64,000 nucleotides of DNA from Escherichia coli 042. Lineage in GTDB: Bacteria > Pseudomonadota > Gammaproteobacteria > Enterobacterales > Enterobacteriaceae. The stretch lies in the NCBI RefSeq assembly GCF_000027125.1, contig NC_017626.1. One strand, given 5' to 3'. Each line of letters opens with the position of its first letter. The first letter of the stretch is position 1. Shown here in pieces: positions 60,404 to 63,564 of the stretch. The position numbers and the translations under genes were made by a program. Below the pieces are notes generated by a model. The model saw only the letters and a list, made by a program, of their open reading frames with translations. It had not been told where the DNA came from and did not search any database.

Positions 60404-61497
60404 TCCTGAGCCAGAGAAAGCAGTATTTGCGTAACGCGCCCTGCGGAAAGCGGGGCGCTGTGAGTAAATACTGCTTGTTTATGTAGCCAGTCGATAAAAT
60501 GTCTGCTGGTTGCTAAAGAGAGCATTTCTGCTTTGCTACTCTTTCCGCCCGTTAATGCACATACCATTTTACGATTTTTTCCCTGAACCCAGAGTTGCCA
60601 CTGATTTTTCCACCAGCCGTGATAAGTTTTTCCCTGAAAACGCCAGGGCATATTATCGGTATCGTCAGCTATTTCCTCTTCAATAAACCAAATTTCACCT
60701 TGCTGTTGGCGAAACAGTTCTGCCCAGGCCGTAATAATCGCACCTCTTAAAAAACACTCGTGTGAAATTACATGTGTTTTTACTGTAGGGAATAAAATAT
60801 TCAGTACTCTGAAATGCCCGTGTGCAGTGATAACCGGACGCAGAATAATACCTTTAGCATTGCGTTTGAGCGCTGCGCTGCCATACTGAATTTCATCAAA
60901 CTGACTGCGGCGTAGAAATTGTGCTTCGCGCATATCAACGCGTTGTACAATATTACTCTCGTGTAACTCTGGTTCTGCATTTCCTCTGTATCGATAATGC
61001 AGACTTTCTCCAGCCTGATGCTGCGTGTAATTAGTAGAAAGATGAAGAATATTACCGCGAAGAGCATCAAAACTGATTAAAACATACAGTTTCTGCCCGC
61101 TGCTGACTCCCTGAAATGGCACGAGAAAAGCAACCGTTTCGATTATTTCGGGAGTCGTTATTTCTTTCTGATATTGTTTGGGTGTCCATACTTTTTTGCA
61201 GTTACGGCATTGAATGCGTTGCGAACCCTGTGGATTGTGACCATAACAAATCGTCTCTGTGCCATAACATACCGGGCAAAAATGGCCTTTCTCTGTTGTA
61301 AAAGTAGATAAGTGAACTGTCAACCAGTCACGAAATTGTTGCTCGTCAAACAACGGCGGGTAACTGCCACATGCCCGACAGTGCAATGCCGGATAACCCA
61401 GTCGATAGTCGGGCCAGCTATAATCTGTCGATGTTGGCTGCCCTAAATTACGGCAACCAAACGACTTGCAGGCATTAATCGTAAACAGAGTCGACAT
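60367..61497 (-). CDS. Hypothetical Cys-rich protein with two N-terminal CxxC...CxxC zinc-ribbon-like motifs; 3' end questionable
   Basis: 376-aa ORF in visibly AT-rich DNA inserted between metL and metF. N-terminus has C10-x4-C15, C40-x2-C43, C74-x2-C77 and C97-x2-C100. The last 45 or so codons run through the metL terminator hairpin and 37 nt into the metL coding sequence on the opposite strand. Confidence 0.55.
   Translation of the reverse strand: MSTLFTINACKSFGCRNLGQPTSTDYSWPDYRLGYPALHCRACGSYPPLFDEQQFRDWLTVHLSTFTTEKGHFCPVCYGTETICYGHNPQGSQRIQCRNCKKVWTPKQYQKEITTPEIIETVAFLVPFQGVSSGQKLYVLISFDALRGNILHLSTNYTQHQAGESLHYRYRGNAEPELHESNIVQRVDMREAQFLRRSQFDEIQYGSAALKRNAKGIILRPVITAHGHFRVLNILFPTVKTHVISHECFLRGAIITAWAELFRQQQGEIWFIEEEIADDTDNMPWRFQGKTYHGWWKNQWQLWVQGKNRKMVCALTGGKSSKAEMLSLATSRHFIDWLHKQAVFTHSAPLSAGRVTQILLSLAQDYNNCARRLISD
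60417..60474 (+). terminator. Long hairpin downstream of metL (candidate terminator)
   Basis: agcagtattt ... aaatactgct 10-bp outer stem with an inner GC-rich imperfect stem (gcgccctgc / gcggggcgc); lies inside the 3' end of the reverse-strand ORF 60367..61497. Confidence 0.5.
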
Positions 61498-61629
61498 ATA
61501 TCACCAACGATTTCACATGGTCGTTGATTTTGTCCGGCAACGCTCCCCTGTGGATGTGATTACTCTCACATAAATAACTCTTTCAGAACGTAATGTAGCA
61601 ATCCTTTATCTCACTGAAAGGGACTGTTT

Positions 61630-63183
61630 ATGAAAATTAAAATACTTGCTGCGGGTATCGCATTAACACTGCCATTCTGGGCTTGCGCTAAAGATGTCAC
61701 CATCATTTATACCAACGACCTCCATGCACATGTCGAGCCTTATAAAGTGCCGTGGATCGCTGACGGTAAACGGGATATTGGCGGCTGGGCAAATATCACT
61801 ACGCTGGTTAAGCAAGAAAAAGCAAAAAATAAAGCGACATGGTTTTTTGATGCGGGCGACTATTTTACCGGGCCCTATATCAGCAGCCTGACCAAAGGTA
61901 AGGCTATTATCGATATTATGAATACTATGCCGTTTGATGCCGTCACGATAGGCAACCATGAATTTGACCACGGCTGGGACAACACATTATTACAGTTGAG
62001 CCAGGCAAAATTCCCGATTGTGCAGGGCAATGTTTTTTATCAGAACAGCAGTAAATCATTCTGGGATAAGCCCTATACCATCATCGAAAAAGACGGTGTG
62101 AAAATAGGCGTTATAGGTTTGCACGGTGTATTTGCCTTTAATGACACGGTATCTGCGGCAACGCGAGTGGGGATTGAAGCGCGTGATGAAATTAAATGGC
62201 TACAACGTTATATCGATGAACTTAAAGGCAAGGTTGATTTGACCGTCGCCCTGATCCATGAAGGTGTTCCGGCCCGCCAGTCCAGTATGGGAGGCACAGA
62301 TGTGCGTCGCGCGCTGGATAAAGATATTCAGACGGCAAGTCAGGTGAAAGGGCTGGATATTTTGATCACCGGACATGCGCATGTGGGTACGCCGGAACCG
62401 ATTAAAGTCGGCAATACGCTCATCCTCTCCACTGACAGCGGCGGGATTGATGTGGGCAAACTGGTACTGGACTACAAAGAGAAGCCGCATGATTTTACGG
62501 TGAAAAACTTCGAGCTTAAAACCATTTACGCCGACGAGTGGAAGCCCGATCCGCAAACAAAACAGGTGATCGACGGCTGGAATAAAAAGCTTGATGAAGT
62601 GGTGCAACAAACGGTCGCGAAATCGCCGGTTGAATTAAAACGTGCCTATGGTGAATCGGCTTCCCTCGGGAACCTGGCGGCTGATGCTTTACTGGTAGCG
62701 GCGGGTAAAAACACCCAATTGGCGTTAACCAACTCTGGCGGCATTCGCAATGAGATCCCCGCAGGGGCGATTACGATGGGCGGCGTCATCAGTACCTTCC
62801 CGTTCCCCAACGAACTGGTGACGATGGAACTCACGGGTAAACAATTACGCAGTTTGATGGAACACGGCGCAAGTTTAAGTAATGGCGTTTTACAGGTATC
62901 GAAAGGCCTGGAAATGAAGTACGACAGCAGTAAGCCGGTTGGTCAGCGGGTAATCACGCTGACTCTGAATGGCAAACCCATTGAAGATGCGACAGTTTAT
63001 TCTATTGCCACCCAGAGTTTCCTTGCTGATGGTGGAGATGGTTTTACCGCCTTTACCGAAGGGAAAGCGCGTAACACAACGGGCGGTTATTACGTTTATC
63101 ACGCCGTGGTTGATTACTTCAAAGCGGGTAACACCATCACGGATGAACAGATCAACGGTATGCGCGTGAAAGATATCAAGTAA
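61630..63183 (+). CDS. Secreted 5'-nucleotidase / metallophosphoesterase (UshA family)
   Basis: 517-aa product with signal peptide [20 protein letters not shown]; metallophosphatase motifs NDLHAH, GDYFTG, GNHEFD, GHAHVG; C-terminal 5'-nucleotidase-type domain ([15 protein letters not shown]). Confidence 0.75.
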
Positions 63184-63238
63184 AAGTACGTATTGAGTTG
63201 ATTCATCTGTTTGTTACCAGTTGATTTTGCAGATCCAG

Positions 63239-63271
63239 TATTCGGCCTACGCGAGGGCGCAGGCCGAATCA
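63239..63271 (+). terminator. Hairpin downstream of the 5'-nucleotidase gene (terminator or REP-like palindrome)
   Basis: attcggcctacgcg agg gcgcaggccgaat imperfect palindrome. Confidence 0.4.
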
Positions 63272-63491
63272 GATGCCTTAGCATCACCATCCGGTGGCAG
63301 GACGTTGTTTTTCGAATAAGCCCAGGTGTCGCTGTGTTGTCAGAATATCAGTCAAAACGTGCGAGGTGGATTGCTCTATAGAGAAATCTTTTATCGCCTC
63401 TAATTAAGATGAGTTTTTTTCAACTTCCCTGATTTTTCCTCACCATCATTGGTCATTTTTCGGTTGACGCCCCTCGGCTTTTCCTTCATCT

Positions 63492-63523
63492 TTACATCTG
63501 GACGTCTAAATGGATAGATGTTC
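63492..63523 (+). promoter_or_regulatory. Tandem met boxes (MetJ operator) upstream of metF
   Basis: TTACATCT GGACGTCT AAATGGAT AGATGTTC: four contiguous 8-mers resembling AGACGTCT, about 45-75 nt upstream of the metF ATG. Confidence 0.6.
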
Positions 63524-63564
63524 ACAACACAACATATAACGACAAGCGATTGATGAGGTAAGGT

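Follow-up and report, generated by a model that had tools for sequence, protein, structure and literature searches.

Why do some Escherichia coli genomes carry about 3.0 kb of DNA between metL and metF, where the K-12 layout has only a short spacer (348 bp in K-12-like genomes)? The question arose from a 64,000-nt stretch of the E. coli 042 genome (NC_017626.1; hereafter the window), in which this gap is occupied, as the original prediction made from the sequence had held, by two divergent genes. One of them, ORF376, lies on the minus strand and encodes a 376-aa protein; the other lies on the plus strand and encodes a 517-aa periplasmic 5'-nucleotidase. The reading that we favor, and consider moderately probable, is that the pair is a CRP-controlled nucleotide-scavenging unit that has long been at this site, with a domesticated transposase as the regulatory partner of the nucleotidase. 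The nucleotidase itself is ordinary, being an additional periplasmic 5'-nucleotidase for scavenging. ORF376 is the interesting part: in two orders its family is associated with the catabolism of nucleosides and nucleotides, and its structural model is very confident.

Two proteins encoded between metL and metF

The 517-aa protein had been described as a secreted UshA-like 5'-nucleotidase, and membership of the wider UshA family was borne out by its signal-like N-terminus and its domains. It matched Pfam Metallophos (PF00149, E 4e-12) and 5_nucleotid_C (PF02872, E 5e-39, residues 335-477), and its translation contains the metal-binding motifs NDLHAH, DAGDYF, GNHEFD, IHEG, and TGHAHV. Across residues 19-517 it is about 98% identical to the protein of PDB entries 3IVD/3IVE ('Nucleotidase'), and the crystallized construct aligns from residue 19, at the end of the signal peptide. 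We take these entries to be structural-genomics depositions of c4898, with uridine and cytidine as the bound ligands. The two-domain architecture (Metallophos plus 5_nucleotid_C), the signal peptide, and the periplasmic location are common to UshA and the window protein, but only the N-terminal domain of the UshA chains in the PDB aligns with it. Because all of its NCBIfam matches were far under their cut-offs, including that to the UshA equivalog NF007109 (151 versus 600 bits), we place the protein on sequence grounds in a separate branch of the family and do not regard it as a UshA orthologue. Literature searches on c4894-c4898 and 3IVD found no biochemical paper on a c4898-type nucleotidase, and PADLOC returned no defence match for either the nucleotidase or ORF376.

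ORF376 is a real gene. It has 253 homologues with invariant motifs in a database clustered at 90% (121 representatives at 50% clustering), its ratio of nonsynonymous to synonymous substitution rates (dN/dS) is 0.11-0.19, and its AlphaFold2 model has a mean pLDDT of 94.7 and a pTM of 0.93. The cysteine-rich N-terminus that had first drawn attention to the protein was confirmed: within its first 100 residues, cysteines at 10, 15, 40, 43, 74, 77, 84, 97, and 100 make up three CxxC pairs and a Cx4C pair, giving two Cys4 ribbons. The match of ORF376 itself to the InsA-type ribbon of insertion sequence (IS) transposases was weak (21.8 bits; NCBIfam cut-off 28), and its relatives P0141, P0143, P0123, and P0163 exceeded this cut-off; the Pfam domain Zn_ribbon_InsA was found in 8 of 51 family members. 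In searches of Pfam, NCBIfam, and PHROGs with ORF376, weak zinc-ribbon matches were the only ones obtained, with no Pfam family. A comparison of the family profile with PDB sequences gave C2H2 zinc-finger matches only, which we judged to be spurious.

Similarity to transposases, which the original prediction had proposed as a check, was evident at the level of the fold. The model of ORF376 has an RNase H-like core behind the ribbons, and its fold-level kin comprise TnsB, the ISCth4 Mutator transposase, retroviral integrases, Mos1, and the Mu transposase. The catalytic triad was mapped in 51 aligned sequences by alignment and secondary structure, not by superposition. The position in beta1 (T121 in ORF376) is Thr in 39 and Ser in nine of the 51 and acidic in none, the position after beta4 (E247) is acidic in all of them, and that in the last helix (N367) is Asn in 48. 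By this mapping, the canonical DDE triad is incomplete throughout the ORF376 family. Longer relatives (about 420-520 aa) have three helices between ribbon and core. Their matches to the NCBIfam IS1 transposase model (E 1e-9 to 8e-7) cover its positions 1-81, the part with the InsA zinc ribbon and a helix-turn-helix (HTH).

ORF376 has an RNase H-fold core and appears to have the N-terminal Cys4 ribbon in common with IS1 InsA/InsAB' and with IS1595-family transposases, and its long relatives also share the HTH with IS1. Unlike IS1, ORF376 itself has no HTH, shows no sequence similarity to the IS1 catalytic part, carries an extra N-terminal zinc ribbon, is a single uninterrupted ORF without a frameshift, is not bounded by inverted repeats, and is single-copy and syntenic. 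InsA is a transcriptional repressor. To our knowledge, bacterial DDE transposases have only rarely become stable host genes with a defined physiological job. A comparable case from another transposon lineage is that of the TldR proteins, TnpB-derived repressors that retain a transposon nuclease fold, have lost the catalytic residues, and are encoded by single-copy host genes beside their presumed targets. ORF376 resembles TldR in its lost catalytic residues, its single-copy state, and its position next to genes thought to be controlled; it differs in that its ancestor would be DDE/IS1-like and not RuvC/TnpB, in that no guide RNA is involved, and in that its regulatory role is putative.

Nucleoside-gene linkage and the divergent control region

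Seven of eight independent genomic contexts of the family were directly nucleoside- or nucleotide-related. Relatives of ORF376 with 25-37% identity were found divergent from nupC-deoC-deoA-deoB-deoD with a Bmp-type nucleoside ABC transporter on hand beside them, and, in another context, divergent from deoB-deoD together with a nucleoside:H+ symporter (deoBD-nupG); others in the same range of identity adjoin 5'-nucleotidase genes or a PNP/UDP-family phosphorylase.

The spacer between the start codons of ORF376 and the nucleotidase gene measured 122-135 bp in 36 of 37 loci and was 74-83% identical between genera, compared with 64-68% for the ORF376 coding DNA. Near its middle lies a CRP-type site, TGTGATTACTCTCACA. 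Only two perfect CRP cores occur in the 64-kb window, where 0.08 would be expected by chance (the other is at 16949-16964), and the TCACA half-site was invariant in 38 loci. Plausible candidate -10 elements are located about 30 bp to either side of the CRP site (TAATGT at 61591-61596 and CAAAAT on the minus strand). A near-invariant block, CTTTCAGAACGTAA, is a candidate operator and the left arm of an inverted repeat whose right arm, CTGAAAGG, follows 27 bp downstream, and an invariant block, AAATCGTTGGTG, precedes the start codon of ORF376.

A search of Rfam with 60300-63700 returned nothing at E≤1, that is, no known riboswitch or small RNA. An RNA switch in the 5' leaders was considered and rejected, as the leader hairpin of the nucleotidase gene was weak (z -2.0) and the left arm of this hairpin is probably upstream of the transcription start. 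The CAACGA/TCGTTG repeat in front of ORF376 was likewise rejected as an RNA element (z +1.1 against shuffles; arms without covariation). Since Rfam gave no match and the RNA folds were unremarkable, we read the conserved spacer blocks as protein-binding or promoter elements. Extra matches to AAATCGTTGGTG in the larger clusters described below were discarded; they lie inside nucleotidase genes, where they encode the TNDL motif.

We propose that the 517-aa nucleotidase is exported to the periplasm and dephosphorylates nucleotides there, and that the resulting nucleosides would then be taken up. A single shared cAMP-CRP site probably drives both divergent genes; if so, the unit would be switched on when preferred carbon is scarce, as the deo, tsx, and nup genes are. 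When set against the nucleoside genes under CRP and CytR (deo, udp, cdd, tsx, nupC, and nupG), the unit shares the CRP core and the linkage to Tsx and nucleosides but has only one clear CRP site, and its candidate regulator is not of the LacI family. Nucleotide scavenging is the best supported among the roles that had been suggested for the pair.

ORF376, for its part, would descend from an IS1-like transposase with a zinc ribbon and an RNase H-fold core that lost its first catalytic Asp and is no longer mobile, and it most likely now acts at the 132-bp control region as a dedicated DNA-binding regulator or as a nucleoside- or nucleotide-responsive factor. We favor a regulator because the protein has an InsA-type DNA-binding module and no longer a complete triad, because its gene is always divergent from its neighbor, and because linkage to nucleoside genes extends through the family. 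The regulatory role of ORF376, the substrates of the enzyme, and the dependence on CRP are all inferred from sequence.

More tentatively, and with somewhat less than an even share of our belief, the argument may be extended to the whole family. ORF376 would then represent an undescribed family of domesticated IS1-like DDE transposases of the Enterobacterales and Vibrionales that regulate nucleoside- and nucleotide-scavenging genes beside CRP and independently of CytR/DeoR. Such proteins would combine two zinc ribbons, with or without an HTH, with an RNase H core and a T/S-E-N 'triad', and their targets would be 5'-nucleotidases, Tsx, nupC/nupG, and the deo operon; the degenerate active-site pocket of ORF376 possibly senses nucleosides or nucleotides. 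If ORF376 is indeed a regulator, it would be a new type of transcription factor in one of the best-studied regulons of E. coli relatives and would explain an accessory locus present in about one third of E. coli, including most B2 strains of extraintestinal pathogenic E. coli (ExPEC).

Distribution, ancestry, and competing explanations

The unit was sought in 5426 complete E. coli genomes with a 3.4-kb query at ≥80% coverage. It was carried by 1837 of them, the remainder matching the flanks only. The median number of places per genome was one and the maximum two, 5441 of 5443 places were chromosomal, and every locus inspected in the E. coli match table or retrieved was the metL-metF site. A long form, present in 659 of the 1837, has two extra nucleotidases and a Tsx channel in the order metL, then tsx, two 5'-nucleotidase genes, and ORF374 (all on the minus strand), then a 5'-nucleotidase gene on the plus strand, then metF. 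Its nucleotidase paralogues are 58-66% identical to the window enzyme. This form corresponds to c4894-c4898 of strain CFT073 and to 'GR 31 metL..metF' of the avian pathogenic E. coli (APEC) strain BEN2908. The c4898/GR31 region has the same chromosomal site and the same divergent partner gene as the unit in the window; with neither a Tsx channel nor the two additional nucleotidases, the window contains a reduced, two-gene form of a larger nucleotidase/Tsx cluster. The list published in 2026 for the GR31 region of BEN2908 gives Tsx and three nucleotidases, and the zinc-ribbon gene is neither listed nor discussed there (PMC12928451). The tsx gene of CFT073, c4894, was induced upon TosR over-expression (PMC5956150).

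The pair had been called an uncharacterised module. This holds for its function: searches on c4894-c4898, 3IVD, and domesticated bacterial transposases yielded nothing on ORF376 or on what the pair does. It does not hold for the parts, as the locus, the enzyme structure, and the gene content of the long form are already on record. No prior description was found of the transposase origin of ORF376, its degenerate triad, its association with nucleoside catabolism, or the ancestral metL-metF location.

A scan of one genome per species gave 35 loci. An ORF376 homologue was divergent from a 5'-nucleotidase gene in 34 of them, and the 35th was interrupted by a contig end; the pairing predicted from the single genome is thus real in all 34 species loci with sufficient flank. 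The order metL-[ORF, 5'-nucleotidase]-metF was found in Escherichia (including E. whittamii and Escherichia sp. MOD1-EC7003), Pseudocitrobacter, many Citrobacter species, Kosakonia, Phytobacter, Superficieibacter, Kluyvera, Salmonella enterica subsp. arizonae, and Klebsiella (K. oxytoca, K. pneumoniae, and K. spallanzanii); in all, more than 10 Enterobacteriaceae genera share it at this position. Between genera, the nucleotide identity of the nucleotidase gene (78-82%) is close to that of metL (80-86%) and metF (81-88%), and the GC content of both genes of the pair climbs with that of the host. With the exception of Pseudocitrobacter, no phylogenetic incongruence between the nucleotidase and its flanks was seen across genera.

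Overall, the pair occupies at least four distinct chromosomal sites. In E. albertii it lies beside kdsA with four nucleotidase genes and tsx, and in Enterobacter and a Klebsiella sp. it is found with more cargo at other sites outside metL-metF; the fuller forms add one to three nucleotidase paralogues and a Tsx-type outer-membrane nucleoside channel. Two units per genome were found in E. coli SCPM-O-B-8794, Escherichia sp. MOD1-EC7003, and Citrobacter sp. wls619; besides the metL-metF form, each has a larger cluster elsewhere that includes Tsx and as many as four nucleotidases. Between the window and the B2 long form, the ORF alleles are only 76% identical in amino acids and 78% in nucleotides, compared with 96-97% for the adjacent nucleotidase gene and the flanks. 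Because this divergence is sharp and local to the ORF, replacement of the allele through recombination is suggested.

Given that more than 10 genera share the site and that the divergence of the nucleotidase tracks that of metL and metF, we prefer long residence to recent insertion: most likely, the unit has been inherited vertically at metL-metF, and K-12-like E. coli lost it. The original prediction spoke of an insertion. About 3 kb do lie between metL and metF, but the polarity was probably wrong, and the 'empty' metL-metF spacer of the K-12-centred view is probably the derived state. Two signs of a genomic island are present, namely presence/absence polymorphism and atypical base composition; no integrase, tRNA target, or flanking direct repeats were found at the segment.

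Several observations weigh against a long-resident unit under a transposase-derived regulator. The HTH segment of the long relatives has been lost in the enterobacterial ORF376 proteins, so that DNA binding would depend on the zinc ribbons alone. In the P0163 subfamily (27% identical), the gene ends an operon near yccA-rlmI whose other products are a Tsx-like channel, a sulfatase, and its radical-SAM maturase, the sole context that is not obviously nucleoside-linked. No block of the control region was found again between the genes inside the larger clusters, and CRP, promoter elements, and the Shine-Dalgarno sequence alone could account for the conserved non-coding blocks. The literature searched holds no experiment or expression data on ORF376. 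As to residence, no remnant of the unit was found in the K-12-like metL-metF spacer, so that loss is deduced from phylogenetic distribution alone. In Pseudocitrobacter vendiensis, the ORF and the nucleotidase gene are 93% identical in nucleotides to those of the window and metL/metF about 86%; because this copy is closer to the window than its flanks are, some horizontal exchange is indicated, and the comparison suggests that the unit has recently passed between genera through recombination within the conserved flanking genes.

The strongest competitor, which we nevertheless regard as unlikely, is that ORF376 is a cytoplasmic enzyme or binding protein, such as an RNase H-fold nuclease or a nucleoside-binding factor, that is co-expressed with the nucleotidase from the shared CRP-controlled region. 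The consistent linkage to nucleoside genes would suit such a protein, a ligand-binding or active site could be built from the conserved polar residues R197, H228, H246, E247, and N367, the enterobacterial form is without an HTH, and in the B2 long form an operon that also contains two nucleotidase genes and tsx begins with ORF374. However, RNase H-fold nucleases require an acidic triad, which is incomplete here, the N-terminal InsA-type ribbon (with the HTH in relatives) is a DNA-binding module, and local regulators are typically encoded divergently from their targets across a spacer of constant length, as here.

A role in host interaction or signalling rather than nutrition, with extracellular ATP, NAD, or cyclic nucleotides as the substrates to be degraded or adenosine as the product, appears improbable. 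Surface 5'-nucleotidases of Gram-positive pathogens do degrade extracellular nucleotides or make adenosine, and the enzyme family includes NAD nucleotidases and ecto-5'-nucleotidases. The long form is also common in ExPEC and APEC strains of B2 (PMC12928451). Against this, the unit is equally found in environmental and commensal genera (Kosakonia, Phytobacter, and Kluyvera), and the Tsx linkage and the CRP site resemble those of catabolic nucleoside genes. The uridine and cytidine that we take to be bound in 3IVD/3IVE would suit ordinary nucleotides.

Still less credit can be given to the view that an IS1-like mobile element entered the metL-metF gap, with ORF376 as its active transposase and the nucleotidase (alone or with Tsx) as a passenger. 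This view draws on the transposase-type fold and InsA-like ribbon, the several chromosomal sites, the polymorphism in E. coli with a GC content under that of the flanks, and the near-identical copies in Pseudocitrobacter and Escherichia. It is opposed by the junctions, at which neither terminal inverted repeats spanning the segment ends nor a target-site duplication was found, and by the first catalytic Asp position, which is Thr or Ser in 48 of 51 aligned sequences and never acidic. The unit is, moreover, present in one copy per genome at a site shared by more than 10 genera, with a divergence that tracks the flanks, the 3' end of ORF376 is interwoven with the metL terminator, and distant relatives are embedded in core deo loci. 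The same absence of terminal repeats, together with the single-copy, syntenic state, speaks against the earlier suggestion of a mobile-element remnant, if a recent IS is meant by this.

That ORF376 is spurious or decaying and the nucleotidase alone functional is scarcely credible: the ORF lacks a Pfam family match, evolves far faster than the nucleotidase (58-63% versus 87-91% amino acid identity between genera), and occurs in truncated copies (S. arizonae, Kluyvera genomosp. 3, and many fragments), but its dN/dS, its homologues with invariant motifs, its very confident model, and the conserved start context and spacer all contradict decay.

Layout of the locus

The features of the locus are collected in Table 1. 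The segment had been placed at 60404-63564 in the original prediction, and the segment itself was correct; position 60404, however, marks the end of metL and not that of ORF376. The segment was also described as AT-rich, which agrees with its GC content: 0.445 for ORF376 and 0.483 for the nucleotidase gene, with a range of 0.43-0.50 across both, compared with 0.584 for metL.

Table 1. Positions of features at the metL-metF locus in the window
Feature	Position	Strand	Remarks
metL (left flank, housekeeping)	57971-60403	+	From the ORF list; annotated metL in a comparison locus
Variable segment, ~3.0 kb	60404-~63415		Replaces ~198 bp of unrelated spacer of K-12-like genomes
ORF376, NCBI name 'cytoplasmic protein'	60367-61497	-	376 aa; IS1-like transposase-derived
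RNase H-like (DDE transposase/integrase-type) core, aa 118-367	60397-61146	-	Triad positions T121/E247/N367
Hairpin directly 3' of metL stop	60418-60476	+	dG -43.8 kcal/mol, z -6.3; U-rich stretch follows
Zinc ribbon 2 of ORF376 (C74, C77, C97, C100), probably IS1 InsA/IS1595-type	61198-61278	-	NCBIfam NF050000, E 2e-4
Zinc ribbon 1 of ORF376 (C10, C15, C40, C43)	61369-61470	-	Near-invariant cysteines in family alignment
Divergent control region, 132 bp	61498-61629		Between start codons of ORF376 and nucleotidase gene
Invariant block AAATCGTTGGTG	61502-61513	-	Just upstream of ORF376 ATG; inverted repeat with CAACGA
CRP-type site TGTGATTACTCTCACA, TGTGA-N6-TCACA	61555-61570		Centre ~67 bp from each ATG
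Near-invariant block CTTTCAGAACGTAA	61580-61593		Left arm of CTTTCAG-N27-CTGAAAG; overlaps putative -10 of nucleotidase gene
Right arm CTGAAAGG	61614-61621		Overlaps Shine-Dalgarno sequence of nucleotidase gene
Periplasmic 5'-nucleotidase, c4898-type	61630-63183	+	517 aa; Metallophos + 5_nucleotid_C
Signal peptide of nucleotidase, aa 1-20	61630-61689	+	Read from sequence; cleavage ACA|KD, Sec type
GC-rich hairpin, 13-bp inverted repeat, no T-run	63240-63269	+	57 nt past nucleotidase stop; z -2.5
Retained metF control region (met boxes GGACGTCTAAATGGATAGATGT, ribosome-binding site)	63416-63564	+	~150 bp, 97% identical to K-12-like
metF 5' part (right flank)	63565-64000	+	ATG at 63565; 98.6% aa identity to metF

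Comparison with the K-12-like layout placed the left junction immediately 3' of the metL TAA and the right junction at about 63415, where homology to the K-12-like spacer resumes, with 97% identity over the next 198 bp, in which the metF control region lies; the part of that spacer replaced here is REP-like. The met boxes of metF had been thought intact, and the last ~150 bp upstream of metF accord with this.

At the left junction, ORF376 overlaps the 3' end of metL by 37 nt, and its last 12 codons (...NNCARRLISD) are antisense to metL 60367-60403. Because the C-terminal tails past the conserved YN motif differ between loci, the tail of ORF376 is probably not functional. The hairpin directly 3' of metL falls within codons ~340-360 of the convergent ORF376. 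Comparable hairpins were found in Citrobacter, Klebsiella, and Kosakonia where the ORF abuts metL, and none where it does not (the B2 long form and the kdsA locus of E. albertii). It is the probable metBL terminator, embedded in the ORF376 coding sequence.

Downstream of the nucleotidase gene, the hairpin at 63240-63269 could be a REP-like element or a terminator. In Citrobacter and Pseudocitrobacter, the interval between the nucleotidase gene and metF holds genes for a LysR-type regulator and a carboxymuconolactone-decarboxylase-family protein, which are absent in E. coli.

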